A stretch of 64,000 nt of DNA from Bispira polyomma (taxonomy: Eukaryota), in assembly GCA_965649765.1 (NCBI GenBank), contig OZ287748.1, positions 106,206,001 through 106,270,000 on the forward strand, written 5' to 3'. Below are positions 8,834 to 62,340 of this stretch, in pieces (the first letter of the stretch is position 1; each line of letters opens with the position of its first letter). The translations under genes were made by a program, and so were the position numbers. The notes under the pieces are model-generated. The model was not told the DNA's origin, did no database searches, and saw nothing but the letters and a program-made list of their open reading frames with translations.

Positions 8834-9377
8834 TTATTCAGTGGAGTAGAGCTGTATTCCCAGGAAGTAGGTCAGCTTAGCTACACTGTCACCGACAAAG
8901 CTCGTCCTGGATTCGGCCTCAATCTTTAGCTGATCTCCAGCTGCAAAGGCCTGAATGTAGCCACGTGACATGCTGTCTACTCCAGTCTGGTAGCCATTTA
9001 CCCGGATGATATTAGCCAGGTGGTTTACATCATTGAGCACGAGTGTCAGTTCTACAGGTTGTTCACTCATGGCACCTGCCCCAAAGTGGATGTAGTAGAA
9101 ACCAGCAGAGTTGATGGTCACTATATAGGTATCTCTGTCATACAGGCCCCCTGCATTGATTAAAATGTCATCAAAGTCGACTGGTGAGAGTACACCTTCT
9201 AGAACACCACCGTCCCAGGAAGATGACCTGCTCACAAACCAAGCTTGAGGTGTAAGGAAGCGGGGCTGGACCAGGAAACCAGAGAATGAGGTCTGAAGCA
9301 AGCTGTCACTGGTGAGGGACCCACTGGTGAGGTAGTACTGGACTGCATCTCCCTGATTGAGGTTTAGTATCATGGAT
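8834..9377 (-). CDS. Exon 5 (last) of ChtBD2-3xC1q gene: end of C1q domain 2 and all of C1q domain 3
   Basis: Acceptor tctttAG 9379-9378, phase 2. AG|A restores ...DTLSR-SMILNLNQGDAVQ...QTSFSGFLV, then AWFVSR...VDFDDILINAGGLYD...AGFYYIHF...GDQLKI...TYFLGIQLY* (C1q motifs). Confidence 0.9.
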
Positions 9378-9674
9378 CTAAAGATAATGAAACACTTAAT
9401 ATCTGTGTTATATCAAGGAATCAAAGGTGGGCATCCATAAAAAAACCTAAAACAAGGAGGAGAAATTATATTTGAATTTAATTGATTCTAAATTTGCAAT
9501 AGAAATACAGTGATTAAACCATTTACTGTTATATCTAAGTCAAGTATCTAAATAGTTTTTTTTACAACCAATAGTCAAGTACAAATGCGTTATTTAGTAT
9601 TACGGTTTTTAAAGCTTATACTTTATGACGTGTCTGTGACTGTTCTGAATTCACGGTGTACAACTTATTAGTTG

Positions 9675-11622: not shown

Positions 11623-11677
11623 ACTTACTCACCATCTCAACTGTATAAACCATCTATATTAAAACGCCTAGACTCAC

Positions 11678-12350
11678 CTGCTGAGGGTGTCTGTGTTATC
11701 GTGTACTGTGTGCTGTCTTGTCAGCTGTGCCTGGACAGCACCATTGACCTGAATATCCACATTCAGGGTAGTGCCCCCTACAGCCCCTGCACTCACTGAC
11801 ACCAAATACAGCCCGGCTACTGGTGCAATGTACGAGCTTGTGCTACCCACAAAGTCATCATTCGTGTTCACACCAATAGTATCAAAGTCAACAACGCCCA
11901 CACTGCTAAAGCCAGATGATCTACCAACACTAAAGACGGAGACTGTTTCCATGGAATTGTGTAAGCTGAATCCTCCCCACGATGTCTGCTGTTGGTCATC
12001 GCTATAGTAACCACCTGCTGTCGATGTGACATGGAATGGGTCATCAGTCGTTAGGTTTGCAATCAGGTCCCGACTCACAGTATCTTCTCCGGAGTGAACT
12101 TCTGAGTCCCGCAGGACGTTGGCAAACTGCCCGAGAAGCCCGGGAACCTCAATACGGTAGTTGACACCCGAGTTAGGACGAAGACCAACATTGAGGTTGA
12201 AGAAATAGATTCCCGGGTTTGGTGTCGTAAAAGTGTTTTCATCTGCGTTAAAATCATTGTGTCTGTCACATATAATGGCTTGATAATCCACTGGGTCTTG
12301 ACGAATGACGCGACTGGTAACTCTGGTCACATAGAAGATGGTGGGATCCA
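11678..12350 (-). CDS. Exon 4 of ChtBD2-3xC1q gene: C1q domain 1 and most of domain 2
   Basis: Acceptor ccttccAG 12352-12351 (phase 1), donor GTGAGT 11677-11672 (phase 2). C1q motifs FTTPNPGIYFFNL, QTSWGGFSL, VVDFDTIGVN, YIAPVAGLYLVSV. Confidence 0.9.
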
Positions 12351-13081
12351 CTGGAAGGCAGAATACAATATTGACTTGGACACATTGAGATAATACAAGA
12401 TCCAATATAATGTATCAATATAAAATAGATCCAAGGAGTGGCATTAATATACAAAATGGAAAGAAATATTAAGAAATAATTTTTTGTATGCTAACTGTAG
12501 GCAATGCTATTTTCAGACAGAATTCTTTACAATCACGAACAGTAGGACTTATATGTTGCTCTACCACTGATACAAAGTGCTACTCCATAACCCCTAGCAA
12601 ATACTTTCATTGTAAACACAAATTTCTAAAAAAACACTTTTGATGAAAACATTTACAAAATTAAAAGTATACATTATGGCACACAAGCCATCATCGCCCA
12701 AACCCCCATCCCTCAAGCAAAACGGGAATTTTAGATTTAGATTTGAGATTTCCTCCTGCAAATACTGCTACTACACCCAGGTCCAGAGATGTCTATATAT
12801 TCATGGTGCCTGTATTTGCTGCTCAAAGCACCAATTCTACCGTTATGTGACTACACAAGTACAACACCAGTATAGGCCGCCAAACAAATCACAAAAGGCT
12901 TGCCAAAGGTTCTTTGTCTAAACACAGGACCACCATTTTATCTGGTCATCAGAGTTGCTGGCATTATCCTACTGCTCCATATTAGCATCGAACCTACGTC
13001 TATGTCGTTTGTGAGTCGACTTGAATGCCAGACAATGCAGTCACTGTGCTACATATTAGACCAGAGTCGCGCTGTACTTAC

Positions 13082-13240
13082 ATGGTGGACCTGAAGAAAT
13101 GGTTGTTGTGGGCTGAGTGGTGGTTGGTAAGGTAGTGCTTGACGCAGTACTTTCTGGAGTAGGCTGAGTAGTGGTTGGTAAGGTAATGGTTGAAGCAGTA
13201 CTTTCTGGAGTAGGCTGAGTGGGGTCCACAGTGGTAGTCA
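13082..13240 (-). CDS. Exon 3 of ChtBD2-3xC1q gene: Thr/Pro/Ser-rich linker with internal 18-aa duplication
   Basis: Acceptor ttacatAG 13242-13241, donor GTAAGT 13081-13076, 159 nt, phase 1-1. VTTTVDPTQPTPESTASTITLPTTTQPTPESTASSTTLPTTTQPTTTISSGPP. Confidence 0.85.
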
Positions 13241-13692
13241 CTATGTAACAGAGAAATGTGTGGGTGTTTTAGTCATTATTTGTTATGATCATTTTGTATT
13301 TATTTATTTATTCAAGTTTATACACATAGTACACTATTTTAAGAACAAAAATACAGAAATAGAGAATTACCAATACAAAATTCAAATAAATAAAACGAAA
13401 TACAATCATACATATAAAAGGGTTAAATAATAAATCAGTGCAAGTTACAGCAAGTTATAGCATAAAATACTCCTTTATTGGATGAATATTAATTAATCCG
13501 GAAATTATCAATTAAATCAATTAATTCTTTCTCGGTGAATCAAGTGTTACAATTCTCTTATTTTCTTATTTTAACTGATCCATTAGGTTGAAAAATATTT
13601 ATCATAATAATTCGATTAAAACTGACTCTATCTCTGTTTCTCAGTTGTAATACCACAGGCATGGAAGCTGCAACATGCCTAGAATAATTATG

Positions 13693-17028: not shown

Positions 17029-17229
17029 CTTGGCACATGGCGTCCACTTGATGCAGACAGATGAGATGTGTAGCGCTGAAGTGTAGTGTAGCTGGGCAGT
17101 CCATGAGGTAGGCAATACATCCGTCTGTACACGCCCAGAACTTGGTGCAGTCTGCAGCATAGGGATACTCTCCCTCTTGGCAGGGGCCAGGACTCCCAGG
17201 ACAATCAAACTCCTGGCCTGATGTACAGG
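17029..17229 (-). CDS. Exon 2 of ChtBD2-3xC1q gene: chitin-binding type-2 domain
   Basis: Acceptor gtgttcAG 17231-17230, donor GTAAGT 17028-17023, 201 nt, phase 1-1. QEFDCPGSPGPCQEGEYPYAADCTKFWACTDGCIAYLMDCPATLHFSATHLICLHQVDAMC has the DC.KF..C / CP..L.F.....C pattern. Confidence 0.9.
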
Positions 17230-25753: not shown

Positions 25754-27058
25754 ATGCACTGTTTACTATCAGTGTTTATCGTAATCTTTTTATACCTCTT
25801 TAGCTGTATCTCGGCTCATCGTGTGATACTTAACACTAGGGAGAGGAGCCCAAACGTCTCCTCCAAGTACAGTGTGGCTGGAGGACAGTGTTGGTTTGAA
25901 CAGCGTGTAGACCCTTTGCCACAGGTAGGAGATCATGACGTCGCCATGGCATCGGTAACCCTAGAGGAATGCCAGCTGTGGTGTGCTTACGCCTTGGGTT
26001 GGGACTGCCTCTCACTAAAATACACAGCACATACACAAAGGTGTGAGCTGAGCTCAACAAATCCAGAAGAGCCTCTTGCTGAAGACATAAACATTGTCTC
26101 GGATGTTGACAAAGAGTTTTGGGAAAAGAAGTGCAGCGGTACGGTCGAGGAGGGAGCAGGAGCTTGCCCAGGAGGATATTTCTCTTGTAAAGATAATGGA
26201 GTGTGCGTGGACACAAGTCTGGTGTGCGATGGAGAAGCCCAGTGTTACGACAGTTCTGACGAAGAGAACTGCGCTGACTCTGCTGCTACCACCATGTCAG
26301 CCAGTGTGGAAGATGAAGAAGACGAAGAAGCCAGCTTCTGCTGGGCAGATGAGTTCCGCTGTCCGGGTACCGCTTCTTGTTTAAGTAAGATACTGGGATG
26401 TGATGGACGAGTAGACTGTCCTTGGGGTGAAGATGAACGGGGCTGCCTGTCTACTTGCCCAAGTGCGAAGAAGTTTAGCTGCAGGGATAGCAAGCGATGC
26501 ATTCCAGAATCATTGGTCTGTGATGGCCTTAACGACTGTACAGACGCTAGTGATGAGACAGACTGCGCCTACCACTGCAGGGAGGGCCAGATGCACTGCG
26601 AGGGATCTTCTCAATGTATCCCTGAGTGGTGGGCCTGTGATGGACAGAAGGATTGCGAAAATGGAGCTGACGAATTGATGGATTGTCAGGACAGCCAAGT
26701 CAAGCCTCAGTGTAAACAGGCCGAGTTCACGTGTAAAAAGGTTAACGTTTGCATCTATAAAAAGAGAGTATGCGATGGACACATCGATTGCCCCGATGGC
26801 TCGGACGAAGAGGGCTGCGGCCCTAAAAAGTGTCCAACTCACGAGTACCTGTGTCCAGACACCAAGAAGTGTATACCAAAGTTCTACCTCTGTGACTATG
26901 ACGAGGACTGTCCTGGAGGCGAGGATGAACTAGATTGTGGAGTGTGTCAGCTGACCAAAGAGTTTACCTGTTGGACCTCCGGCAGATGCATCCCCATCTC
27001 CTGGAAGTGTAATGGCTATCAAGACTGCAGCGATAGCTCAGATGAAAAGGATTGTTAA
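25754..27058 (+). CDS. Secreted protein: signal peptide, PAN/apple domain and seven LDL-receptor class A repeats (single coding exon)
   Basis: 434-aa intact ORF. Hydrophobic N-terminus. PAN-like TLEECQLWC...CLSLKY...CELS. Seven 6-Cys modules each ending in an acidic SDE/EDE/ADE...C motif. No transmembrane segment. Confidence 0.93.
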   Translation: MHCLLSVFIVIFLYLFSCISAHRVILNTRERSPNVSSKYSVAGGQCWFEQRVDPLPQVGDHDVAMASVTLEECQLWCAYALGWDCLSLKYTAHTQRCELSSTNPEEPLAEDINIVSDVDKEFWEKKCSGTVEEGAGACPGGYFSCKDNGVCVDTSLVCDGEAQCYDSSDEENCADSAATTMSASVEDEEDEEASFCWADEFRCPGTASCLSKILGCDGRVDCPWGEDERGCLSTCPSAKKFSCRDSKRCIPESLVCDGLNDCTDASDETDCAYHCREGQMHCEGSSQCIPEWWACDGQKDCENGADELMDCQDSQVKPQCKQAEFTCKKVNVCIYKKRVCDGHIDCPDGSDEEGCGPKKCPTHEYLCPDTKKCIPKFYLCDYDEDCPGGEDELDCGVCQLTKEFTCWTSGRCIPISWKCNGYQDCSDSSDEKDC

Positions 27059-31609: not shown

Positions 31610-34600
31610 TGCGGTAATATTTTTATTAGTATGACTAGGATGTTATATCTAACATTGAATATATACGGTTTCAGCTTTACAGCATGGGATCAACTTAAAC
31701 TGGTCACCTTAAGTTAAAATTTTGAAATTGAGGCCACCATTAGGTGACCTTAAATTAAGTTAAGTAGGGCCAGGATGAGGTGACCCTAATTTAAGTTTAG
31801 AATAATTTAGAAGAGGTAAGGGGGACATTTGGTGGCCCTAAGTTCAGTTTAAGCATACCAAAAGGTAATCTAACAGAATTTGAAGATATAATCTAAATGA
31901 TTACATTATGTATTAAAGTGTAAGTTGACCTTATGCCCAGGACAGTGTGTACCGTCCAGTTTTATATTTTATTTGACATTAAAGTTGTATATATTATTTA
32001 TTCAGCTGACCAGAGGCCAGAACACCAAACCCAGAGACGCCTAGGAGTTGGGCTGTAGGGTTTCCTGAAAGAATCAGCAACCTGGGAGCCAAGCAGAATC
32101 TTTAATATACTGCCAAACGCAATCCGACATCTAGGTGCCATGACGTTGAATGTCCTGGACATTGACGTTATTGTTGAAAGCAAATGTGGTACCCGAACGT
32201 CGGAACGCATGGAAGGTCAGATTCGCCTACTGGCAACCAAGCAGCTGGAGAACATTCTTCAGGTGTCTCCTAACACGGGTATCAGTCAAGGGGCCCCTAG
32301 TACTACCAACCTTGTACTGAAAAAGAGGTGCATTGGGGTCAGTAGGGGTTAATGTTAATGCATTCCTGAGAGTCGCCACTGGACACAGGCTGGAGTGGGG
32401 GATAACTGGAGTAGTTAACAGTCTAATTGCGTTGTTTGACTGTAAGGTTTTAGATCATTTAATTAACATTACATAGCCTGGTTTGAACAGGACATCACCC
32501 CTAGCTAGGTGCTTTAACAGAGAAAATGCCGCCACAGAGTGGGGGCAAAGATTTGATAATCTCAAAAAACTAAAGAAACTAGTCAAATAGATAGCCTTAA
32601 AGATCTGGCCCATATAGGTGCTGTCACATTTAGCTACCAGAGCAGTAAGGAGAGGGATATCGAAAATGTTCTTAAGCTTAGCTGGAGTGGTCTGTGAATA
32701 ACCAGAGCTCGATTAAAGTATGAAATTCTGGGGTCTGCAAAGCAGTCCACATTAATATGAAACAGTATACATTTGGCTTTAATTGCTGACAAGTGATTAG
32801 CTATTTGAGAGGCCGACATTGAATTATAGTTCAGTAATTCTAAGAAACAAAAGAGTCTAAGTACAGTCACCTGAGTGGGGGCCCAGTTGATAAAGGCCCC
32901 AAAGGCAATGAAGATTCTGAACATGCTGTCGTAAGCCCTGGCTGTGGAAGCCGCAAAAGCAAAGTGGAGCCTTTTACAGGCCCGACTCGTCAACAGAGAG
33001 TCCAAAGGGTGGAGAGCTGTAACATATTATAAACATAACATACATTATATGTTATTATCAAGTTGCAGGAATGTGGCGTCTACATATAACCATTCCACAG
33101 GACCTGCCCACTGAGCTAGTATTTGACTGTTATTACAGGTTTTGTCCCAACGTGAGAGGAGATCAGCAATTTTATTTTTGACACCAATAATATTAATCAC
33201 CCTTTTGTCAATGTCAAAGTGACTAGCCCCCATATAGATATTTCTTGTGTATGAGGCCAATACGGGGTCTTGGGTTCGCCCAGTTTCAAGCATGCTAACT
33301 ACAGCCTGATTATCGCATTTAAACAGAACTTTCTGTCCCCGCCAGGCACTAGACCATAGTTTTAATGCAACAAGAATATTAATCATTTCGAGTGAGGCAA
33401 TATTGTCCTCAGTCATATTTTCTGGAACTTTAAGCTTGTAAACTTGAACCGTTGGACACCATTGAACCGTTGGACACCATTGAACCGTTGGACACCATTG
33501 AACCGTTGGACACCATTGAACCGTTGGACACCATTGAACCGTTGGACACCATTGAACCGTTGGACAAATGTATAAAACCAGTTAAGGTCCTTATTAAAAT
33601 CTCGGGTTACTTTAAATCTGTTTCTGACAGGTGGGAATTTTCCCCTCACACCCTCAACTTTCCTTTGTTTTAAATCACAGTTTTGTTTTTTTATTTTGGG
33701 CGATAGAAACAAAGGAGGGCCGACATCTGTCCAGAAATTTCACACCTTTGCTCTGAGTGCCCTGAGACCTTCCAGTCTTCACATTATAAACATCTTACGT
33801 GTTGTTTCAATACCAACTTTTGAAATGGGCTTTTGGCTGAAGTTTCTGTAATGTTAGTACATGGTTTAATATTCTGATACTTTCTATGTACATTTTGAAC
33901 AGCCTCGCTGTAAGAACAACGAGTCTTTTTATCTCGATTATATGCAACCATTTTCTCTCTAACTGACTTCTTGAATAAGTGAGCTTCCTGAAAGTTGGAA
34001 TTATAAAATTCCCTACTAAAAACTGAATTGTCCACTGAATTGTCCACTGAATTGTCGCAGTGGCCACTTAGTTTTTTGCCCTTTTTTTGCTGCATGTGTT
34101 GCTTTTATGTGCGCCCCCACACGACTCGCAGACATGCTTAAAGTATGTATTGCCCGTTTTGTGGCTGCTTGGGAATTGGCATGAACCATCCTGGTAAAAC
34201 TTGCAATTTGCTGTACCCTGTTTGTTAACCGAACCACCATTTTTACTACCAGCCCGGCCAGCATTATTGTGGTTAGAATTGGCACTTGAAATGTGTCTTT
34301 GAGCGTGGGCTCTTCTGAGCCTGTCGAGTTTATCAACATCTGACAACTTATCCATCTCTATTTGTGTTAACACCACAGCATGGCATGCTTTCGCAGTTTC
34401 CCACAAAAAATCCTCCCAATCTTCCATAAGGTTCGTCATGTATTCAAGCATGGTTTCCCTTGTGGAATTCGACTTTTCATCTTGCACAATTCTAAGGACC
34501 GAAAACTATCTGTTAATATGTGGTTTTAAGGCTACTTAACTAAACGTTTCACAACAACATCTACAACCCCCCCCCCCCCCCTTTGGGATTTTAATTTACC

Positions 34601-40817: not shown

Positions 40818-40893
40818 ATGGCAAGTGTAAAAGTAAGAATTACCACAAGGATAGCATCCTGTCTTCTGGTTGTGATGATTTTATTAGTAACAG
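40818..40893 (+). CDS. Exon 1 (signal peptide) of ChtBD2-mucin-TM receptor-like gene
   Basis: agcATGG start context. MASVKVRITTRIASCLLVVMILLVT + G, donor GTAATT at 40894. 76 nt, phase 1. Joins 44762 to give ...LLVTDAVS|KSPC. Confidence 0.75.
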
Positions 40894-41109
40894 GTAATTA
40901 TGACAACGGTTGCTATTGCTTTATTTTTTTCTAACAAACGAAACAACAGAAACAGGCAAAAACATCCATGGCGGTGTTAATCATGACAATATTAGTAATT
41001 TTGACAGAAGGCTGGAAACGTTTGTTGTCGATAATACTTTTTAATATTTTCTTAGTAGTGCGGGAGACAATATTTGGCTTATTTGGCCACAAATTGTTAT
41101 TATCTTTAT

Positions 41110-41720
41110 GAATTTTTAAAGTGCTTTATTGATGCTAGGCATTTGTTAAAGGGCAACAGCAGAATCCAATCGTCAAGTCTATGAGCATAGTAGAGTTGTA
41201 AGGAAAGAAGTGGGAGTGTACATAAAGGAAGCTAAGGTGGGTAGGCAGAATTGAAAAGAGAGGTTTTAAGCTTTTTTCTAAAACCGATGAGTGTATCAAC
41301 TGATCTGAGGTCAACTGGGATACTGTTCCATAACAAAGGAGAACACTCTGGATCCCGCCTTCCTAAAGGGTCTGACCAAAGAAACAGAGAGTCTGTTGCC
41401 TCTCTTACGGTTACTGAAAGTGAGAAGGGAAGAGAAGTAGGAGGGCTTTTGAGTGACTATGGCCTTAAAAGTGGAAACAAAATGCAGGATTGAATGGGCA
41501 GCCGGTGTAATGTTTTGAGGTAAAGATTGACGTCTGTACGACTTCCTAGGCGAAAAATAACCCTGCATAAGTAGTTTTGAATGGACTGGAGCTTTTTAAT
41601 CTGTGACTTGTTTACTCTGTACAGAAGAGAGTTGCAGTAGTCAAGGCGGCTGTTCAGAAGGGCGTTAGCCACAGTTATCGCTGTGTCCATTAGCAGGTGG
41701 TTTCGGATTCTTTTGTGTTG
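41110..41720 (-). mobile_element. L2/CR1-group LINE 3' fragment
   Basis: VANALLNSRLDYCNSLLY...LQSIQN...LKTLHRLPI. Confidence 0.85.
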
Positions 41721-42338
41721 TTATGAAGTCTAAAATTTTTCATCTGGACTGTTTCAAAGTACCTCTGCATGGAAACAAAGTGCCTCTGCATAAAACAAAA
41801 TAAATTTGCAACCAGAAAAGTTGCAGTCTAGTTTCTGTTCATATTGTGATATGGTATCGAACAGACTTCAAGTTTTTCTTGACTAATGCCACTGTATCTT
41901 TAATTGTTGCTTCTATCATAAAACAAAGTAAGTGAAATTATCTGACATTATTCTATCCTTGACCTTTATGAAGGTTTAGGCATTGCAATGTCCACCTTAC
42001 CCGGCTCCAAATTTGGTTAGAAATAAGGCCAGACGCAAAGGTACACAGAGAGGTCAAATGGTTATGAAAACAGGGAAACAATTCATTGATGAATATTTAC
42101 TTTAGTTACATGATAGCTTCAGAGAGTGTTATGTTCTAAACTAATTTTCATTTCGATATCTGATCTACAATATAAGGTATTATGTAGAGTACACTAAGTT
42201 GACCATAACTTTGGGTACACATGTAGAGCCTGAACTAGGTAAGGAAGTTTTAACTGAAGGTTAAATAACACTGGTAAAAATGTAAGGTGACAATAACTTA
42301 AAAAGTATACTTGCTATAAATAGTCAATCTACTAACAG

Positions 42339-42642
42339 GATAGTTCAAGTTACAGAGTAACTTAGACGAAAGGAGTCAAGACTAGTTTTAAGAGGTAACG
42401 AAACAAAGTATGGCATCAACTTATTGACGTGCCAGTAAACGAGTACTATGTTAATCACTAAATGAATATGTATGGGGGCAGCAAATCCCTAGATAGTTCA
42501 AGTTACAGAGTAGCTTAGACGAAAGGAGTCAAGACTAGTTTTAAGAGGTAACGAAACAAAGTATGGCATCAACTTATTGACGTGCCAGTAAACGAGTACT
42601 ATGTTAATCACTAAATGAATATGTATGGGGGCAGCAAATCCC
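42339..42642. repeat. 153-bp direct tandem duplication
   Basis: gatagttcaagttacagag...ggggcagcaaatccc occurs at 42339 and 42492 with about one substitution. Confidence 0.92.
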
Positions 42643-44049
42643 AAACACAAAGAATATGACCATTCAAAAAGTAGGCATTGAAACCAGAGAGTGACAGATT
42701 GGCCTGCCTACTGAGTCTGTACAATATACAGGTTCCCTGAAGCTTTTAATGATGAAGGTCAAATTACAATTGTTATGTCTAGGTCAGACATACATGTAGC
42801 TCTGGATACCTCCACGGTTTAACATGGAACTTTGAAATCATCGCTAAAATGTGATTAATTTCACTCAAAGAAAGTGACTTATTGTAATGTTCATCATTTA
42901 AAAATTATTCACAGAGGTAGCAAAATCATTGTAAATAGTGTTCTTTGTTTCATAAACGTTGCACGCATAATCACCTCACGATAGTTTGTAGTCGAACCAA
43001 TTAAGGCTGTACGTAGTGTTAATGTTCATGCAAGGTTGGTAAAACAGTAATCGACACAAAGTTTTTTCAGATGACCCCTACTCTTAAAACTCTAAACCCC
43101 TAGCTTCTAATAAGACACCACTGTGTTTGCCAGATTGTTGTGTAACATTACAGATGTTGGGTAATGCCACTACATGTGGTGATCAACACACAAATATCTG
43201 CACATTCTTACCTTGATTGGTGTGATAATATCTTTGGGCAAGATATGGACACTGCCTACTAATGACGACCAAGGAGCTTTCTTGTGACACGTGTTTACTT
43301 CTCTTCGCCGCATGACCATAGTTGTATCTTCAGTCTGTGGTTAGCACAAGCCAAATTTGCATTGTTCGACTTTAGTGTCAGCACACCCTTGGTCCATACA
43401 AATCTATTTGTTATGTTATTAGTCACAGCACTTTGTCTTCAAGTTTTATTAAGACAGCTGCTGTACTAAGTTAACATGTATCCATTAACCACATATGTCA
43501 CCCCACCAATGAGCCTTTCATTCTATAGACCTGGCACAAACATGTCCAAAATGACATCAACGTTGTCTTGGATATAAATTGGATGGCTGCTTAAACCCTC
43601 CTTGATTAGTTAATCACATTGGACACAATTGGTCACAATATACTCATTGGATGTTTAAATTCTTCGTTTGTCAATGTCCGTGCTCCAGTGGAGTGCATCA
43701 TATCTAGCCTATTATAGCGAAATCATCGCAGTTGGTGAAACTAAGTTATAACCTTTCAATTAGCCCTTTCCTACTAGGTTCTTTCAAATTCCTTAGATTT
43801 CTTCTATTCTCATTGTATCCAAGTTAGAAATGTAAGTTCGTCACACAACAGTATTAGCTATAGCACGTCCACACAGATGATACTCATATCTACAGCTCTC
43901 TCAGTTTTAAAAACTGTTCTGAATTTTTGTTCAATTTAATCTAGGACGAGGCTGTACTCGATAAAACAAAATTATTACTGCTCAATAATTTATTGCTTAT
44001 AATCTAGGAGTCAATTTCTTATTTATCTTTCAAAAACCATGTTTCAATC

Positions 44050-44340
44050 AACACATGTTGTGTGCCATCTGGGATCTCCTTTTTCTCCAAAGGCTTCATT
44101 GGCTACCTGTGAAGTACCACATCATTTTCAAGACCAATGTTACTACATACAAAGGTATAAACCTATGTCAGCCCCCATATCTTGCCTTATTATGGTCTTT
44201 CAACAGGCTTAATAGGGAAAGAGAATTTCAGTCTCTGATACCAGAGCTAGTAAACAGACTATGGAATAATTTACCAACCGATATATGATCCCAGGAAAAC
44301 CCTCTTTGGCTTCAGAAGTAACATTAAGACTCTCACGAAT
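44050..44340 (+). mobile_element. L2/CR1-group LINE small fragment
   Basis: LQRLHWLPVKYHIIFKTNVTTYK...RLWNNLP. Confidence 0.75.
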
Positions 44341-44761
44341 TTGCTTTGGAAACAGACTGTGACTTTTATAACTTCAAGATACAATTTTGATGTCTTTAAT
44401 TTTAAGACTATATCCATGTTCAACAACCAGCCTACTTATGGATGGCATAATCTCTCTGACGGTATCATTACTGAAACAAAGATTACAGGCTTTTGCAATC
44501 AACTCACTTTTCTGGTCATAGCATATATCTACCGTGTGTGAGTGGACTCTGATTCCAAATATTTTACTTCTATCAGGCCACGCTTAGATGTCCAGAGCAT
44601 GGTTGGACATCGACTATAAAGCTATAAAAGTTTAAAATTAGGGGTCAGCTAAATACCTCTATTAGGAGTTCCCTAACAACTTACACTTATGATTAAACCA
44701 AAATTAACATTGTTCATAATAGTAGTTTATACCAGTTAACATTCTTAATCTGTACTTCCAG

Positions 44762-45010
44762 ATGCTGTCTCAAAATCGCCCTGTACCATTGACCCCTGTG
44801 ACAAACCACCCTTCTGTTCTGATGGTGAAATGACAGGTAATGTAGAGGACTGTGGTACATTCTATCAATGTGTATTCAATGGCTGGAATGTCCAATCTTG
44901 TGGTGGCCCTACCCTGGGCTTTGACGTGAACACCTGCCTGTGTACCTATTTGACTGAGGCACACTGTGCAACCTGTAACAGCTCTAGTCCTGATGGCACA
45001 GTCCCACCAG
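44762..45010 (+). CDS. Exon 2 of receptor-like gene: ChtBD2 domain 1
   Basis: Acceptor cttccAG (44760-44761), donor GTATGT (45011), 249 nt, phase 1-1. ...FCSDGEMTGNVEDCGTFYQCVFNGWNVQSCGGPTLGFDVNTCLCTYLTEAHC... Confidence 0.87.
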
Positions 45011-45808
45011 GTATGTGTACACCAATATCTTCTCAACTGAAACTACACTGAGTTTTATATGCCAGCTCAGCCATGGCCATAAAGTGATAGACAGTCTTTG
45101 ACAGATAGTGTCAATCATAGTTAGTTTAATACATCTTTATGTGTCTGAGATGAAAAACCAGAAAATGAGTCAATTGTAGTTATTCACATGTGTCAATAAT
45201 CACAGAGATCATATTACATGTTTTGTAATGTGTTGCCATTCTCATGTCGGCCTCTGTGGCAATCCCTTTCAAGGGGTGGTGTTCCAGAATATTACAAGCA
45301 GTATTACCTCTGATGCTGCAATTTAATGACCAACGGCCCCAATAAATGTACATGTGTACGAATGTGGCATATTTTATATGACATCACTTGCCTTAGTGTG
45401 TGTAATATTTTTATTTAAAGTTTAGATATAATAGTAAAACTACCTGAGTGGTGTTTAATAAACAAATATTTGACGAAAAGGTCTAAAACATTGAAATATT
45501 CACGGCCATATAAACAAAAAGTAATGACTTGTTACCTTCAAATTTGCTTCAAATACAAACTTCTACCAATCTAAAAATCAGGTTTTGGACACAATAACAT
45601 TGCATAATACTTATATTTTATAGAACTCAAAAGTTTTAAATAGTTCAGTGATTAATTAGTTTACAATGGCCATATTAAAACAATCCCAAAGATAGTCTTT
45701 GTTTCGTGTCAAAAACCTTCTATTATGACGTCACAAAGCACATTTGAAAGGCCAGAAGTACCTTAAAGATTTAACTTCAAATTTGTACTAAGAAGGTACT
45801 AAAAATCC

Positions 45809-45990
45809 AGTTTAATATGTCATTGTGTTGTTTAAGGTTTATATTTTATAATAAACATAGTATTTCTCACTTTACTATCTCAAATATTTAATAAAATGAC
45901 ATTAAAAACAAGTTTAATATGTCATTGTGTTGTTTAAGGTTTATATTTTATAATAAACATAGTATTTCTCACTTTACTATCTCAAATATT
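45809..45990. repeat. ~80-bp direct duplication (period ~102 bp)
   Basis: agtttaatatgtcattgtgttgtttaagg...ctatctcaaatatt occurs twice. Confidence 0.85.
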
Positions 45991-46137
45991 AAAAACAATT
46001 TTCATGTACATTTCCACATGCACAGGCGTCGGGTTCATTGTATCACCCGGTCTGTATTAGCCACGAAAACGTCTTAATAACGTCACAGTGGATAATAAAA
46101 TATCAGAAAACAAACTAAGAGCAGCTTCTGATTTCAG

Positions 46138-47778
46138 GAGCATGTCCTGGTGTACCTGATGTGTGTACAGAAGGACAGCGGTACCCAGACGCTTCTGACT
46201 GTGAGTACTTCTTTGAGTGTACTGGAGGAGAACTGATCCATCAGGAATGTGATCCACCTATACACAGCTGTCTGTTCCCAGCAATGGCCTGTGCCTTTGA
46301 TATTCACAGCTTGGAGTGTGTTAATCCTGACCCTTCCTTTAATTGTGACTACAGATGTCTGACAACTTTACCTTATACTGGAACTACGACAGAACTCAGC
46401 ACAGCAAACATAGAGACTACTGAACCGGTGTTAACTACTATCAAACCAACTACAGAAAATGTAATAACTACTATCCAGCCAACTACAGAAAATGTGATAA
46501 CTACTGTGATCCCTACTACAGAAAATGTAATAACTACTGTCCAACCAACTACAGAAAATGTGATAACTACTACCCAACCAACTACAGAAAATGTGATAAC
46601 TACTATCCAACCAACTACAGAAAATGTGATAACTACTATCATCCCTACTACAGAAAATGTAATAACTACTGTCCAACCAACTACAGAAAATGTAATAACT
46701 ACTGTCCAACCAACTACAGAAAATGTAATAACTACTGTCCAACCAACTACAGAAAATGTGATAACTACTATCATCCCTACTACAGTAAATGTGATAACTA
46801 CTGTCCAACCAACTACAGAAAACGTGATAACTACTATCATCCCTACAACAGATAATGTGATAACTACTATCAAACCAACTACAGAAAATGTAATAACTAC
46901 TATCAAACCAACTACAGAAAATGTGATAACTACTATCCAACCAACTACAGAAAATGTAATAACTACTGTCCAATCAACTACAGAAAATGTGATAACTACT
47001 ATCATCCCTACTACAGAAAATGTGATAACTACTGTCCAACCAACTACAGAAAATGTGATAACTACTATTATCCCTACTACAGAAAATGTGATATCTACTA
47101 TCCAACCAACTACAGAAAATGTAATAACTACTATCAAACCAACTACAGAAAATGTAATAACTACTATCCAACCAACTACAGAAAATGTGATAACTACTAT
47201 CAAACCAACTACAGAAAATGTGATAACTACTACCCAACCAACTACAGAAAATGTGATAACTACTGTCCAACCAACTACAGAAAATGTAATAACTACTATC
47301 AAACCAACTACAGAAAATGTGATAACTACTACCCAACCAACTACAGAAAATGTGATAACTACTGTCCAACCAACTACAGAAAATGTAATAACTACTATCA
47401 AACCAACTACAGAAAATGTGATAACTACTACCCAACCAACTACAGAAAATGTGATAACTACTGTCCAACCAACTACAGAAAATGTGATAATTACTATCCA
47501 ACCAACTACAGAAAATGTAAAAACCACTATTCTACCAACTACAGAAAGTGTGATAACCACTGTTCAACTTACTACAGAAAGTGTGATAACCACTGTTCAA
47601 CCAACTACAGAAAATGTGATAACTACCGAAACACTAACCACAGAGAATATAAAAACAACTGATAAGACAACCACAGAGCATATTGTAACTACTGAGAAAA
47701 TCACTACTGAGAAAATCACTACAGATACCAGTGAAGTTGTCATGACAACAACCCTACCTTTGTCTACAACATCAACTG
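46138..47778 (+). CDS. Exon 3 of receptor-like gene: ChtBD2 domain 2 and Thr-rich mucin stalk
   Basis: Acceptor atttcAG (46136-46137), donor GTAAGT (47779), 1641 nt open, phase 1-1. CTEGQRYPDASDCEYFFEC...AFDIHSLEC, then the (QPTTENVITTV/I)n repeat. Confidence 0.92.
46432..47630 (+). repeat. Coding 33-bp VNTR, ~36 copies (11-aa mucin repeat)
   Basis: ccaaccaactacagaaaatgtgataactactgt units, all in frame with no stop. Confidence 0.95.
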
Positions 47779-48094
47779 GTAAGTGTTACATATAAATGTG
47801 TGTTTGTGTGTAATATTAGGGATTTTTATCTGTCACGTAATTGAACAACACAGTTGTGTAGTAAGCAAAGCAATATGGCGGCGTATGTAAAAAACAATCA
47901 ACAAGAAAAAACATTGATCTTCCTTTGAACTAACGACATGCCACAATCACCCATTCTTTACCTGTAACAAATCATACCTCCATTTATTATGACAACACAG
48001 CTCAAGTATTGAAGCAAATGTCACAATGAACTAATACAACAATGAACTAATACAACAATGAACACATATGGATTGTTTTGCTCTCTGTCTTTGT

Positions 48095-48218
48095 GTGCAG
48101 TCAGTAAAACAGCATCTAGTGTGTGTGTGTAGTCAGTATAACAGCATCTAGTGTGTGTGTGTAGTCAGTATAACAGCATCTAGTGTGTGTGTGTAGTCAG
48201 TATAACAGCATCTAGTGT
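48095..48218. repeat. ~32-bp tandem repeat x3-4 containing (GT)n
   Basis: gtagtcagtataacagcatctagtgtgtgtgt read directly. Confidence 0.85.
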
Positions 48219-49401
48219 ACTTGATTTGTCTCTTTCTTCTCAAGAATGACACTCTTCTCTGTCCTGTCAGTCTGTTTCTTACCATTACAAAGCCTTACTG
48301 TTTTGTGTGTGTGTGTGTGATGTGAGCACTTAAACAGACTTGTTTACACCTGTACCCAGTGGTTCTACAACCTCAACAACAACATGACTACACAACATAC
48401 TGTGTTTGATCAGTGTGTTACACAACAGCTCCAGGTCAAGCAAGGTTATCACACACCACACAACAAGGGTTTATTGAAATACAAGGAGTTTGTGTCTAGG
48501 CTAAAATGATGTGTCATATTTACTTTATCAATTAGGTTATCAGCTTCTATACTGTCAGTATGCCTGTCACTTAAGGTAGTTATTTACCTGTATCTGGACA
48601 GTTACAGATCAATTACACGTTGTTACTGATAAACACAAATTGATTTCTGCAGTTAATTATCTTTATAAATTATTAAGTTTGATGACAAGTTTTATAGATA
48701 TACATCATAGACAAGCATGATTAAAAAATTTAAAAGGCCTTAAATATGTTACATACAATACAATGACTTGCTATTTGACCTGTACTTTTAAGAATATGAT
48801 ACACTCATTTAGCAGGTAAGTAAGATAAGATTTATTCCAATTAATTACTTAAGCAAAAAACAACTACAACTAATCAATATGTGCTGGTGATAGTAAAAAA
48901 CAACAAGTAAATTTGACACAATATACAGTGTCAATCCAGTGTAAAAGGTCACTAAATGTTTAGAGTCTTGTGATATTTGGTGAGGCTGTACTAAATAAAA
49001 AGATATAATATACATCAACTGAGAAATAATAAAATTATATTTTGGGGTGTCGACTGCCTCTTGACAACATACGTTCTGGCTGTCACAAATGCTGTCAAGT
49101 ACTGGCCAACAGCAAAGGGATAGAACTGGTTAATATAAGAGCTCAGACAGAATTAACTACTGAAAAAGGACAATTAAATTCATGTTACATGCAGTCAAAT
49201 GCATTGGCTATATAAATATAAGATTAGAATGGAACACTTCCAATACTCTTTTAAGTTGATATTATCATTATGTCATGAACCGTGTGTAGTGTTATGACTC
49301 CATGTTTTCAGTGTATTGTATTAATATTTATAACCTGCACATTACCTGCACTGTGCTTTTCTTTATTGTACTTTACTTCTTTCCCCTGAATGATTTTTCA
49401 G

Positions 49402-49510
49402 GTACTGATGGGTATCCAGTGGCCTACATGGTTAGTGTGACCAGTGTCTCCCTACTTGTAGTGGTCTGTATCTGTATCATTGTTTACTGTGTCTGCAGAC
49501 GTTCTGACAG
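49402..49510 (+). CDS. Exon 4 of receptor-like gene: transmembrane helix
   Basis: Acceptor tttttcAG (49400-49401), donor GTAGGT (49511), phase 1-2. GTDGYPVAYMVSVTSVSLLVVVCICIIVYCVCRRSD is a hydrophobic run with juxtamembrane Cys and an RR stop-transfer. Confidence 0.88.
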
Positions 49511-50285
49511 GTAGGTGAAGGTATTCAAAGGTATGTGAAGGTATCCAAGGGTAGGCGACGGTATACAAGGGTAGGTGAAGGCATCCAAGGGTAGGTGAAT
49601 TTATACAAGGGTAAGTGAAGGTATACAAGGGTAGGTGAAGGTATACAAGGTTAGGTGAAGGTATACACGGTTAGGTGAGGGAATCCAAGGGTAGGTGAAG
49701 GTATCCAAGAATATGTGAAGGTATCCAAGAGTAGGTGAAGGAATACAAGGGTAGGTAAAGATATCCAAGGGTAGGTGAAGGTATACAAGGGTAGGTGAAG
49801 GTATCCAAGAATATGTGAAGGTATACAAGGGTAGGTGAAGGTATACAAGGATATGTGAAGGTATCCAATGGTAGGGGAAGGTATACAAGGGTAGGTAAAG
49901 GTATACAAGGGTAGGTGAAGGTATCCAAGGGTTGGTAAAGGTATCCAAGAGTTGGAGAATGTATCCACATTTAGGTGAAGATATCCAAGAGTAGGTGAAG
50001 CTACCCAAGGGTAGGTGAAGGTATTAAAGGGTAGGTAAAGGTAACCAAAGGATATGAGAATGTTTACACATCTAGGTGAAGGTAACTGAGGTTAGGTGAA
50101 GGTATCTAAGGTTAGATGAAAGTATCAAAGGTTAGGTGAATGTATCCAAGTTTAGCTGAAGGTATCCAAAAGTTGATGAAGGTATCCAAGGGTATGTGAA
50201 GCTATCCAAGGGTAGAGGAAGCTATTCAAGGGTATGTGAAGCTATTCAAGGATATATGAAGGTACCTAAGGGTAGGTGAAGGTAT
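49511..50285. repeat. 20-bp minisatellite, ~38 copies (gtaggtgaaggtatacaagg), starting at the first base of intron 4
   Basis: Read directly. Made of two related 10-mers. Confidence 0.95.
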
Positions 50286-50481
50286 TTGTTGTGGGCTTGA
50301 ATCATTGTCCTGGATGGTATGTTGTAAAGTTGGCAGTCATCGCGGATTCTCAGCTCTGGAGTCAATACAGGAAAGTTGAATATAGACGTTCTACAGGCCG
50401 GTGGTTTAAAGAGCCAAAAAATTTAACCAACTATCCTGTTCAGTTTCTCCCAACCAGTAAACTGTCCATCGTTATATGACT

Positions 50482-50710
50482 TGAATTTGAATTTGGATAT
50501 TTAATGTCCACTCTAGTACCTTTTAGTAGTTGGAAATGCTGGAGGAAACACTGCAAAAACAGTCGGTCAAGGTTCTGCACTGAAACCAGTGGGCCACAGT
50601 AAGGAAGTACCACCTTTCCCACATAGGCATCGACGGGATTTGAACTCACACCGCCTAGAGGTGAGAGACCAGTGATTGTGAAGCGCAATGCTTGCTAACC
50701 ACTAGGCCCC
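50482..50710 (-). mobile_element. tRNA-headed SINE
   Basis: Same family as 6712-6969 and 63077-63298. B-box GAGTTCAAATCC on the minus strand. Confidence 0.85.
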
Positions 50711-50946
50711 CATCATTATATGACACAGGACATATTAAAAGCCACATTAAGGCGAAAGTAAACTACCTATCAAGTGACCCTGAAATATACAGAGATTTAA
50801 GGGGCTAAGAATAATATAATCAGAACCTAGAATATTTTTTCGAAGTATTATAGATTTTCTTACTGATGAGAAGAAATACGAAAATAATGTAATGACAGGG
50901 TAGGTAGACACTTGTATAGATCATAGGTGTATCTTTTATTTAACAG

Positions 50947-51025
50947 TGGAGATAAAGTGACAGAAGTGAACACACTCTCTACTTCTGACATTAACCAGAA
51001 GATATCAGTCAAAGATCAACCCAAG
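50947..51025 (+). CDS. Exon 5 of receptor-like gene (cytoplasmic juxtamembrane)
   Basis: Acceptor tttaacAG (50945-50946), donor GTAGGT (51026), 79 nt. Phase 2-0 exactly bridges exon 4 and exon 6. SGDKVTEVNTLSTSDINQKISVKDQPK. Confidence 0.75.
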
Positions 51026-51636
51026 GTAGGTGATAGTCAGCATATTAACTGATTTATCCTTTTCCACCAAACAATAGTATAACTTCAATGTAAAAGTACC
51101 AAACCAGTACTGAAACTTAGGAGTCTAATTTGCTCTCCTTTATTTGCTGAACACCCATTAGAACATATTGAACTATACCATTCAGTGATACAGTACCACA
51201 CAAACAAGATATTACCTGTACCTATATTTGTATATTATCAATGGAAACTATCAACTAGTACTTGATATATGTGTATGTTTATTTATGGATAGAGATTTTT
51301 ATATTTGCCCTCTAAATGGTTTGTTGTTTGAGAATATTGCAGTGATACAATATACTACACAAACGATATAAGCTGGTTTCTTGGGGGTTTGAATTTAAAT
51401 TTTGTTGAACATTTTAATAAATTAACTAGTTCAGATGCAAGCAGGATTTAGGACAAATATACAGACATGTCTTTGAGAGAAAATGAAAACATTTTTATCA
51501 TTTAAATTAAACAACCAAGATGGACTATTTAAGGTGTTAGGTCACTATTTTTTACGCAGAGATAACTAAACACTCAACTATCCCCTGACAAAACCCAAAT
51601 GGAATCTTTAAGGCATTAGTTCATTATTTTAAACAG

Positions 51637-52227
51637 ATGGTAGTCCCCCAGCCTTTACCAACAATACACACAAGTCAGATGGCGGCTGACCCTCCTCTAC
51701 CAACTTATGACAGACACTCTGGCCCCTGGATTCCTCACAGCATCAGTCATGACGGCTACGACTTAACCCAAAGCAGAGACGACGTCTCGTTTATCATGAA
51801 CCCCATCTATGTAGATTTCTTCGCTCGAGGAGAGAGTAACCATGGTAACAGAAACAACAGCAGATCGTATGGAGAGAGGGTTGCTTACGGCGATAGCCCT
51901 GTCTATGCAGATGTCCATCGTAATGGCAGTAACCATGGAGTTAACTACAGGTCACATGACATGGAAAGCTTTGGTTTCGGTAGAAAACCTTATTACGAAG
52001 ATGTTGTAAGGAGAGACAGTCGCCATGAATATAACAACAGTAGATCAGCATATGGGAATCCTATTTATGAAGAGGTCTCACGGAGAAGCAGTAACTATAA
52101 TCACATGAACCATAGCAATGGGATTGCCAAAAGTCCTGTATACCAAGATACAGGAGATTACGAGATGGTAGACAAGAATGTATGGCCACCATACTACATG
52201 GGTAACACACCGAGTGACCGACGCTAG
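51637..52227 (+). CDS. Exon 6 (last) of receptor-like gene: tyrosine-motif-rich cytoplasmic tail
   Basis: Acceptor ttttaaacAG, phase 0, 196 aa to TAG. Motifs NPIYVDF, SPVYADV, KPYYEDV, NPIYEEV, SPVYQDT, DYEMV. Total CDS 2745 nt = 914 aa + stop. Confidence 0.85.
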   Translation: MVVPQPLPTIHTSQMAADPPLPTYDRHSGPWIPHSISHDGYDLTQSRDDVSFIMNPIYVDFFARGESNHGNRNNSRSYGERVAYGDSPVYADVHRNGSNHGVNYRSHDMESFGFGRKPYYEDVVRRDSRHEYNNSRSAYGNPIYEEVSRRSSNYNHMNHSNGIAKSPVYQDTGDYEMVDKNVWPPYYMGNTPSDRR

Positions 52228-53874
52228 AAACGGCAGAGAACACCCGGCAAGACGGATTAAAGAGATTTGAACACATTCAAACGCTGAACTTACATCCAGA
52301 GAGAAACAGAAGTTGTAAAAAGTTTATGCTTGTTATCAGGGATCTTTTAGTGGCAGTTGATTTCTGTATCTCACAGGAGCTTCTGCACTATAAATCATAA
52401 CAGACATACACTTTATTTTTGTCAGTAATATGCCGCTTGGTGCAATTTTCAATAAAAAAAAACTTATTTGTGGGTACATTATTATAGTTGATATTTTTTA
52501 AATATGTATTATTGGGGTCTTGGTCAAAGATGTAATTTAGTGAAGGAACTATATCAATATCGCAAATTGAACTTATATTGAAATTTTTAATATTATTTAA
52601 CGACAAATACTTTTCACCATTAAACCATTTTTAAAAGCTTGTTTTTGTTAGGCTAATTTTTCTTAATAAGATGCGTAATTGTAATATCAGTCGGCGTAGA
52701 AATAATTTACTGTGCTATTAATTTTGTGAAAGAGGTATGATTTACACACTATATATCGTCTTAATCAGACATTATTTTTATTATTTAATATGTTGAAGTG
52801 ATTACGGACCTTGTTAGCTCAGGTTGTATGCTTTTGTTCCACAGTTGTCATAATGTTTTCCAATGTAATAACCTTTATATCTCAAGTTTGCTATGATAAA
52901 ATATAATCAAAAGACAGATTATCTTTACTTAAAATATTTACTAAAAATTAAAAAAGGGTTTCTGGCATTTAAGAAGGTTTCTTAAAATCGACGTGTATGC
53001 GCTCGGACCAGATTATAACAATTACAGATATAAGCACGTCTTATAATAAAAAATTGCCATAATAACATCACAATGACGTTTGTCTATGATGTGTTTTGCC
53101 ACCAACGCATATTCTAACATGACACAGGTGTGTCAGTGATTCTGATTGGCTGAACGTTACGGTAAAAGTCCCCACTAATACACCTGGGCCATTTCCGTCC
53201 GTATTGGAGATTCTTAGAGGTAAATAGTTCTTAATTATTTTAATTTGTCAGACTTGACCTTTGTGTTACTACGCGTCAAATCGTGGTAAAAATTACTCTG
53301 TCTCATGATTTGTCGTGTGTTTTTTCTTAAATAAATAATGTAAAAATAGAGTTTGTTCAATGTTATTGTTAATATTTACAACTGTAAGCACTTTCTTTAT
53401 AGAGAAATATTTTTTTCGAAGCTACAACATCATAATTACGTATTGATGACCTGTCATAATATTTATTTTCATAATGTCTAAAAAAAACCATCCAAAAACG
53501 ATTAATTATTGCTCATGAGGTGATACATGGGATCCCAAGGTGTGTTTATGTTATACTTATATTTTATGCTATTGTAACCGCAATGATGGTCGCCTTAATC
53601 TCAGGTAATTAAATTCATGGGCCTTTTTTAAAAGTATCAATGGTTGTTTGTTTGATTTTGTAAATGTTAATTGAACATGATTTGTTATATTGTAAGTATA
53701 TGTATAAATTAATAATCCTTGTGCTCTGTGTATGTGTGTATATGTGTCCCGATGTACGTATTTATTGTACACTTTCATTCTGTATATGTGTCCCCAATGT
53801 TACTATTTATTGTACACTTCCAATTATACCGTAAGACTGATGGGCTTATAGTTGTATTATATTGTATTTTGCAT

Positions 53875-60939: not shown

Positions 60940-62340
60940 TCTACAGTTTTATAAAGTTGACGATACATTCTCACCAGTTTGAGCCCTGGCTCGGCTGAGC
61001 TCGGTTGTTGTTACGTTCTAACAAGTTCTCACAATGTTCACGAAACGTTTTAACCAGTTTATGCCAGTTGGCGTCTCGGCGGTGCCCCGTTTATGCCAGT
61101 TTGAGCCCCAACCATAGTCGTTTGCTCCAGTTCTCATAAGTTCTCAGGACCAAACAAGTTCGAATTCTGATTACGCTAGGTTCTCACAAGTTCATGTCCC
61201 AGCATGCTCCGATCATGACACATTCTCACCCGTTATACAGAATCATACAAATACCAGGCTCTAACTGAGCTCATCCTCACAATCCATATAGAAGTCAGAG
61301 TTAACACATATATGCCGATTCTACATTGATTGATATTCTATACTTCATATTGTACACTTTCATAGTGTATAATGAGGAGACAACTGATACCAGCTGCTTT
61401 CTTGTGTGATCTTTGAAATATTTTTTTAAACATTTGTTCAATCTGTTTTTGTATTTTTAGGTCAACATGAAAGGGCCAAATGAACAGCGGATCCAACTTC
61501 TGCGGGCACAGCTGAACCTGTATCAGGCAAAAAGGATTCACAACAAAACAAGGTGGCTCTCTACATCCAGATGAGGCAGCGTGCGGGGTTAAAGTGCCAC
61601 AGGATCAGGCCTTGGCTACTGAGAAGGCCAGTGAACTCCTGATGAGGCTGACTCCAAGGATAGAGAAGTAGAGGACCTTTTTCCGGTCACTAATCTCTCC
61701 TGGGTTGAAACTTGTCCTGACCCTGAAATATCTGGCCAGTAGAGACTTTTACCAGAGCATGGAGCATAACTTCTGTGTGGAATACCACCTGCTTGTTCAT
61801 CCCTGCGGTGTATGAGGCCATCTATTCAGCCTACAAGGAAGAAGTCCTGAAGTGCCCAGATAACCCCCAGGATTGGAAGCAGTAAGGGAAGTCTATGGCA
61901 ACCGTTGGAATTTTCCACATGCAGTGGAGGCTTTGTATGGGAAGCATGTCTCGGTAATGTCCACTGTAAAGAACGCATCTTCAAGTACAAGTTGTCCAGA
62001 GCCAGGCGTGTGGTTGAGAATGGCTTCAGGATACTGACCAACCACTTCAGGTGTCTGCTATCAACCCTAACCCAGGCACCAGATACTGTCACCAGCATTG
62101 TGTTAGCCTGTGTGACCCTCCACAACATCCTCAGGCGCAGATACAGAGAGGTACACCAGGATCTGCTCGACCACGAGGATAACCAGCACATGCTTGTTTG
62201 TAGCTAATTGTATAAGTTTAAGCTATTGTAGAAGTTCATTTCTATTGAAATCTCAAAGATGCAGATATAGTTACTATTGTTAAGGTAGTTGTTGTTGTGT
62301 CAATGAAAGATGTTCAATAAAGCTCCCCACACGTACCTCC
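60940..62340 (+). mobile_element. PIF/Harbinger transposon remnant (DDE transposase pseudogene, internally deleted)
   Basis: LTPRIEK*RTFFRSLISPGLKLVLTLKYLAS; RWNFPHAVEALYGKHV (DGKH motif degenerate); then ERIFKYKLSRARRVVENGFRILTNHFRCLL...IVLACVTLHNIL. Subterminal ttctcac.agtt repeats at 60960-61230. Confidence 0.85.

Follow-up and report, generated by a model that had tools for sequence, protein, structure and literature searches.

In a 64,000-nucleotide window of the Bispira polyomma genome (the whole stretch of DNA that was analyzed), a terminal exon on the plus strand probably encodes, as judged from a predicted splice model, the cytoplasmic tail of a type I surface protein, which crosses the membrane once. 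This tail carries five P-x-Y-x-D/E motifs in one stop-free frame, and the modules around the first four arose by internal duplication. We favor, with somewhat better than even confidence, the reading that the protein is a candidate receptor for chitin or matrix and that its tail is a multivalent tyrosine docking array for SH2 and PTB adaptors.

The prolines of the five motifs start at positions 51802, 51898, 51988, 52060, and 52135. Composition shuffles of the exon contained PxYx[DE] 0.17 times on average, and 0 of 20,000 reached five; in the whole window, read in all six frames, the pattern occurs 16 times, including the 5 in this exon. Because the pattern was picked post hoc, a pattern-free self-alignment test was added. 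The best off-diagonal self-alignment of the tail scored 48 against 30.6 +/- 5.0 in shuffles, a value reached by 7 of 1,000, and the sum over the six best diagonals was 255, whereas no shuffle exceeded 206. Thus, the repeated motif claimed in a preliminary description of this DNA holds both by its count beyond shuffles and by self-comparison. The elements of the tail are as follows, with tyrosines in tail numbering.

51799 to 51846, plus strand: module 1, I-M-N-P-I-Y (hydrophobic-x-NPxY), Y58.
51895 to 51939, plus strand: module 2, S-P-V-Y-A-D-V, Y90, with Y84 six residues upstream.
51985 to 52029, plus strand: module 3, K-P-Y-Y-E-D-V, Y119/Y120.
52051 to 52101, plus strand: module 4, Y-G-N-P-I-Y-E-E-V, Y139/Y144, an exact [FY]xNPx[YF] overlapping Y-E-E-V.
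52132 to 52152, plus strand: module 5 (core only), S-P-V-Y-Q-D-T, Y169.
52177 to 52215, plus strand: NVWPxYxMGNTPS block, outside the repeat, Y186, 11 of 13 residues identical in the homologue P0003.

Modules 1 to 4 score 37 to 51 against one another, whereas module 5 scores just 22 to 27 against the others. The earlier count of five modules therefore stands for four clear copies and extends to the fifth in its shared core only. The spacing had been put at about 27 to 31 residues; it is actually 32, 30, 24, and 25 residues. Extra tyrosines had been listed as well, and those of PTYD and GYDL (51706 and 51757) lie just upstream of the start that the region had been given. Tandem Repeats Finder did not list the tail region at a score of 30, so the repeats are old and degenerate.

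The duplication is recorded in the DNA. In the register set by the protein alignment, nucleotide identity among the modules is 228 of 420 positions, versus 198 +/- 7 in synonymous shuffles, and none of the 10,000 shuffles reached it. At the 54 identical residues, the codons are also identical in 31 cases, where synonymous shuffling within the tail predicts 20.2 +/- 3.5 (P 0.006), and the result was nearly the same when recoding followed local-gene codon usage (P 0.007). These shared synonymous codons and the nucleotide identity above shuffles bear out, for modules 1 to 4, the internal duplication that had been proposed. The DNA echoes of the repeat that had been pointed out were located at 51835, 51928, 52018, and 52090 and nowhere else in the window. 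The alignment of modules 1 and 2 with modules 3 and 4 has a score of 73, where the highest of 5,000 shuffles was 69, and because of this score and a spacer word common to both halves, we think that a two-module unit was probably copied once, from 1 and 2 to 3 and 4.

The exon is the last of six in a predicted gene model, at 40818 to 52227 on the plus strand, for a 914-amino-acid type I membrane protein with GT-AG borders, no internal stops, and phases 1/1/1/2/0.

40818 to 40893, plus strand: exon 1, ATG in good context, signal peptide, phase-1 donor ranking 12th of the 792 GT sites in the gene span.
44762 to 45010, plus strand: exon 2, peritrophin-A-like (CBM14) domain 1, PF01607 E value of 2.3e-4, six-Cys pattern.
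46138 to 47778, plus strand: exon 3, CBM14-like domain 2, which has one additional Cys pair, followed by the Thr-rich mucin stalk.
49402 to 49510, plus strand: exon 4, single predicted transmembrane (TM) helix at residues about 665 to 687, ending C-V-C-R-R, hydropathy peak of 2.86.
50947 to 51025, plus strand: exon 5, 26-amino-acid juxtamembrane linker without tyrosine, leading from phase 2 to phase 0.
51637 to 52227, plus strand: exon 6 (terminal), 196 amino acids, 17 tyrosines, stop TAG.
52451 to 52456, plus strand: AATAAA, candidate poly(A) signal, 224 nucleotides past the stop.

All five donors rank between 2nd and 12th of 792, with that of exon 4 in 2nd place, and the acceptors rank 8th to 102nd of 752, the exon 6 acceptor being a middling 102nd; these scores come from a splice model with rounded generic frequencies. 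The splice-model scan found no frame-preserving candidate exons in introns 3 to 5, four weak ones in intron 1, and in intron 2 a single AT-rich, hydrophobic pseudo-exon candidate. Exon 1, whose signal peptide has a basic n-region and a hydrophobic core, is the least certain exon of the model. Given the phases, skipping exon 4, exon 5, or both causes a frameshift, and exon 6 is therefore read only behind the TM helix. The order of a predicted signal peptide, one TM helix, an RR stop-transfer, and then exon 6 upholds the cytoplasmic topology that had been assumed. GC content rises from 26 to 34% to 50% in a step at the exon 6 acceptor, and each of the five other frames contains 5 to 20 stops in the exon 6 region.

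Exon 6 could also be left unspliced to the TM gene and yield either a small cytosolic protein that begins at a Met inside the exon or a structural protein, rich in Tyr, His, and Gly, that belongs to a chitinous matrix. Such an arrangement would suit an exon that begins with ATG behind an acceptor of only moderate strength, as well as P0003, whose initial Met corresponds to M54 of the tail. We nevertheless hold it to be very improbable. The strong phase-0 donor of exon 5 must be joined to an exon farther on, and no other frame-preserving one lies in intron 5; the GC step falls at the acceptor and not at M54; exon 6 has no signal peptide; and the start of P0003 would be the choice of an ORF caller in an isolated exon.

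The TM helix and its end (about 49470 to 49505, plus strand) contain four cysteines, including a juxtamembrane C-x-C before R-R. By analogy with transmembrane adaptors, we take these cysteines to be candidate palmitoylation sites, and the C-x-C presumably recalls palmitoylated adaptors. A 20-nucleotide satellite (38.8 copies, 49510 to 50285) begins precisely at the TM exon's donor, and a donor-like GGTAGGT recurs with its unit, which gives many potential cryptic 5' splice sites behind that exon.

Beyond the TM helix, the modeled tail is 227 amino acids long and is predicted to be disordered. It has a FoldIndex of -0.12 and no cysteine, and its AF2 model, weak in that it was built from a two-sequence alignment only, has a mean pLDDT of 38 and no secondary structure.

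On the other side of the membrane are the two CBM14-like domains. Domain 1 matches PF01607 at 21.7 bits, slightly below the Pfam gathering cutoff of 22.1, and domain 2 falls under the same cutoff at 17.1 bits (E value of 0.006). Both show, in a pattern scan, the six-Cys spacing with aromatics between C2 and C3, and the top ESM Atlas matches of domain 2 are CBM14 (0.85 to 0.86, lead level). The AF2 model of domain 1, made from a single sequence, was poor (pLDDT of 45). None of 13 candidates among longer proteins was kept for domain 1, and a search of PDB sequences returned nothing for domain 1 and one weak match (E value of 0.097) for domain 2. The mucin stalk is about 450 amino acids long, and Tandem Repeats Finder places in it 36.3 copies of a 33-nucleotide (11-amino-acid) Thr-rich unit (46428 to 47626). 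Apolipoprotein-type Pfam matches on the stalk were under the cutoff and were set aside as low-complexity noise. CBM14 mucins are usually secreted matrix proteins. The studied protein is like the peritrophin-A (CBM14) mucins in its six-Cys chitin-binding-type domains and Thr-rich mucin stretch and unlike them in its predicted TM anchor and signaling-type tail. CBM14 is widespread among molluscan matrix proteins (PMC6368272), and the excerpts of that paper describe no membrane-anchored CBM14 mucin with such a tail.

A phmmer search with the tail against 1.84 billion representatives gave two matches, both at an E value of about 7e-4. One of them, P0002 (E value of 7.2e-4), was not accepted as homologous: this Ser-rich repeat protein contains no PxY and aligns outside the motifs, with a score of 78 where shuffles reach at most 71. 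The other, P0003 (E value of 7.8e-4), is a 183-amino-acid protein on a 307-kb contig that scores 170 against the tail, with a maximum of 94 in 3,000 shuffles. P0003 is the only putative homologue found, its E value is at the level of the spurious P0002, and the comparison covers the tail region alone. The tail matched no Pfam family, none of 192 candidates among longer proteins in a word-index search, nothing usable in the ESM Atlas, and only one PDB sequence, by chance (E value of 1). A profile search at near lengths recovered P0003 itself only (1 of 169 candidates), and the exact sequence of the tail is absent from the protein collection.

Tail residues 142 to 193 align with P0003 at 23 identities in 53 columns. 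In this reliable core, P0003 keeps Y144, Y169, and Y186; it has other residues in place of Y154 and Y187 and is gapped at Y175. The NPxY at Y58 is probably kept too, judging from the N terminus of P0003, which has 5 of 7 residues in common with module 1. MAFFT paired 9 of 14 aligned tyrosines versus 45 of 145 other residues, in an alignment whose N-terminal half is of low complexity and unreliable. Like the tail, P0003 contains 17 tyrosines, 5 PxY, 2 NPxY, and one YxNPxY, the last in a C-terminal extension and thus at another position than in the tail. It has fewer modules than the tail, and modules 2 and 4 both find their best match in one P0003 motif (scores of 38 and 29), so the copy number has changed. 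Y-[DE]-x-V sites number three in the tail and none in P0003. A check had been suggested of whether the tyrosines are conserved while the spacers diverge; in this one homologue, several tyrosines are kept and the spacers have diverged, but the Y-E-[DE]-V sites are absent.

The best-conserved block is the C-terminal NVWPxYxMGNTPS and not the repeat. Together with the difference in copy number and the N-terminal halves, for which two alignments gave different registers, this strongest conservation outside the repeat would agree with a low-complexity tail, rich in Tyr, Asn, Ser, Gly, and Arg, that expanded by slippage, in which the tyrosines are generic stickers or drift and only NVWPxYxMGNTPS has a specific partner. 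We consider that account improbable, since P at -2 and D/E at +2 are present in all five copies even though the modules share just 2 to 6 of 11 residues around the tyrosine, and since P0003 has a PxY excess of its own (5 seen, P 0.003).

Two further features of the tail were observed. Paired tyrosines of the type Y-x1-2-[NST]-P-[IV]-Y, 5 to 6 residues apart, occur twice in the tail and twice in P0003 and are possible priming or tandem sites.

51886 to 51906, plus strand: paired tyrosines in the tail.
52051 to 52068, plus strand: paired tyrosines in the tail.
P0003 residues 105 to 111 and 165 to 170: paired tyrosines in the homologue.

The shuffle P value is 0.0002 for each protein, for a pattern chosen post hoc. 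V-W-P-x-Y within the conserved block (52177 to 52215, plus strand) resembles, we would suggest loosely, the C-terminal Groucho-binding pentapeptide of Runx; it is without that pentapeptide's Arg and is not terminal. The T-P that follows could presumably be a site for a proline-directed kinase.

The tail was also compared with defined motif classes, with ITAM and ITIM taken as in bioRxiv 10.1101/2022.03.04.482883 and [FY]xNPx[YF] as in PMC3338440. Neither the tail nor P0003 contains an ITAM (Yxx[IL]x6-9Yxx[IL]), an ITIM ([ILVS]xYxx[ILV]), or a nephrin-type YDxV. A relaxed ITAM has one match in the tail (Y144/Y154), which is lost in P0003. Strict EPIYA, as E-P-I-Y-A or E-x-[IL]-Y-[AG] with an acidic residue at -3, is found in none of the five modules and nowhere in P0003; the residues at -3 of modules 1 to 5 are N, S, K, N, and S. 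ITAM and EPIYA, both invoked in the preliminary description, thus fail as memberships, and of its combined label for the modules, NPxY applies to two of the five and the E of EPIYA to none. Both proteins contain one exact [FY]xNPx[YF] (P about 0.016 by shuffling in either case), along with a second NPxY. The YxxPhi class is not enriched in the tail (6 seen, P 0.067). Readings as PPxY (a WW ligand), YxxM, or relaxed ITAM were dropped, as these are not kept in P0003. The tail does combine the features of a multivalent phosphotyrosine tail, with at least three spaced tyrosine motifs in a predicted disordered segment that is cytoplasmic according to the predicted splice model.

By analogy, the tail may work like those of nephrin and LAT and those of LRP1 and Draper, but it belongs to none of these families. 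Tyrosines lie about 20 residues apart in the nephrin and LAT tails (PMC9333988), and clustering depends on valency (PMC4238058). The studied protein resembles nephrin and LAT in its single pass and disordered tail with several tyrosine motifs about 20 to 30 residues apart (PMC9333988), and its three Y-E-x-V sites are similar to Nck and Src SH2 ligands. It differs in that the tail has no strict YDxV and Y-E-x-V is lost in P0003; unlike that of nephrin, its ectodomain consists of CBM14 and mucin rather than Ig, and no sequence homology was found in Pfam or PDB. With the LDL-receptor family, LRP1, and Draper, both the tail and P0003 share the exact [FY]xNPx[YF], and as in LRP1, the signal of the tail overlaps a YxxPhi and is accompanied by a more membrane-proximal NPxY (PMC3338440). 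The gene model, however, has no LDLa, YWTD, or EGF domains, and unlike the LRP1 signal, that of the tail lies about 170 residues from the membrane, inside a duplicated array, and differs in position in P0003.

PTB clathrin adaptors read [FY]xNPx[YF] (PMC3338440), and the tail might instead be mainly a set of sorting signals, with redundant, unphosphorylated NPxY and YxNPxY sites for these adaptors and YxxPhi for AP-2. The protein would then be a receptor that takes up or recycles chitin or matrix and not a kinase-signaling scaffold. This alternative strikes us as unlikely, although YxNPxY is present in both proteins, five of the initial six residues of the LRP1 signal recur in the P0003 copy, endocytic signals often come in tandem (PMC3338440), four of the five anchor tyrosines have a hydrophobic residue at +3, and the SH2-type Y-E-x-V sites are not conserved in P0003. 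What speaks against it is that just two of the five modules have NPxY and that the tail has no dileucine signal. The acidic or Ala context at +1 is also kinase-substrate-like. So is the conserved aliphatic residue at -1, as described for Abl substrates (PMC3561454).

With the EPIYA arrays of CagA, Pragmin, and p140Cap, the tail has in common a repeated P-[IV]-Y core, a variable copy number, and [IV]-Y-[AE]-x-V in modules 2 and 4 and the P0003 motif. It is unlike them in that no module has E at -3 and in that the protein is of animal origin and membrane-bound, unlike a bacterial effector or a cytosolic scaffold; the likeness is convergent only. That the array stems from a bacterial EPIYA-type effector, by acquisition or as a copy, has in our view next to no probability. 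The motif likeness that would speak for such an origin is superficial, whereas the gene has introns, the 185,579 prokaryotic genomes searched contain no relative of the tail (31 pattern matches, 0 confirmed), and EPIYA proteins have no homology in common beyond the motif (PMC4030455).

Invertebrate ITAM/ITIM receptors of the Hydractinia Alr family are single-pass proteins that are restricted to a lineage and have fast-evolving tyrosine-motif tails (bioRxiv 10.1101/2022.03.04.482883). The studied protein is like the Hydractinia Alr family in being a lineage-restricted single-pass protein with a tyrosine-motif tail, and unlike it in having no ITAM or ITIM by the definition of that source and CBM14 and mucin instead of Ig/Fn3.

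For the docking-array receptor that we favor, the two CBM14-like domains would be held off the membrane by the mucin stalk, and the binding of polymeric chitin or a chitinous matrix would cluster the protein. The [IV]-Y sites could then be phosphorylated by Src/Abl-type kinases, after which phospho-sites 24 to 32 residues apart would bring in several SH2 adaptors simultaneously; the NPxY and YxNPxY sites would bind PTB adaptors and support uptake. A further-reaching proposal, which we offer tentatively and regard as doubtful, is that of a lineage-specific animal chitin receptor in which the CBM14 domains would engage chitin fibers and clustering would lead to a multivalent phosphotyrosine condensate and from there to phagocytosis or the assembly of actin, with the number of motif copies tuning the response and NVWPxYxMGNTPS as an undescribed linear motif for a core partner. 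The chitin could come from the animal's own chaetae, gut, or shell matrix or from fungi or prey.

Tyrosine-motif tails are familiar in invertebrate single-pass proteins (bioRxiv 10.1101/2022.03.04.482883), and the repeat alone is therefore of modest interest. What matters is the combination, in which a mucin stalk and a single TM helix join chitin-binding-type domains to a docking array. Were it confirmed, it would offer a testable path for the sensing or uptake of chitin by an invertebrate cell and a natural case of phosphotyrosine valency changed by duplication, and the conserved NVWPxYxMGNTPS block would be a motif with no known partner. Exact-word searches of open-licence PMC and bioRxiv texts found no description of a CBM14-mucin-TM-Tyr-array architecture; given that scope, this absence is weak, and supplementary gene tables could contain such a protein.

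The rest of the window was surveyed as well; Rfam reported no families in it. The other features are the following.

17033 to 17227, about 13080 to 13242, 11674 to 12340, and 8837 to 9400, minus strand: exons of a neighboring gene, including a clear CBM14 exon (Pfam E value of 8.5e-10).
25754 to 27058, plus strand: intronless ORF of 434 amino acids with a signal peptide, 7 LDL-receptor class A stretches (Pfam), and no TM helix.
33045 to 33581, minus strand: retroelement RNase H-like ORF piece with a 21-nucleotide tandem insert, recognized by eye, with no Pfam match.
61851 to 62207, plus strand: transposon remnant, DDE_Tnp_4 fragment (Pfam E value of 5e-10).

The neighboring minus-strand gene has a CBM14 exon, a Thr/Pro mucin exon, and tandem C1q exons, and probably encodes a CBM14-mucin-multi-C1q protein that is secreted. 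Over 29 amino acids, the CBM14 of this gene and domain 2 of the studied gene are 55% identical, a likeness that hints at shuffling of a common phase-1 exon type. The gene content of the window is that of an invertebrate animal, and the tandem C1q and CBM14 genes would suit a lophotrochozoan. The exact sequence of the 434-amino-acid ORF is absent from the protein collection; its N-terminal Cys pattern looks PAN/apple-like by eye, a match that Pfam did not report. Between 18370 and 19140, a self-complementary stretch of about 770 nucleotides, 89% identical to its own reverse complement, is probably a fold-back element.
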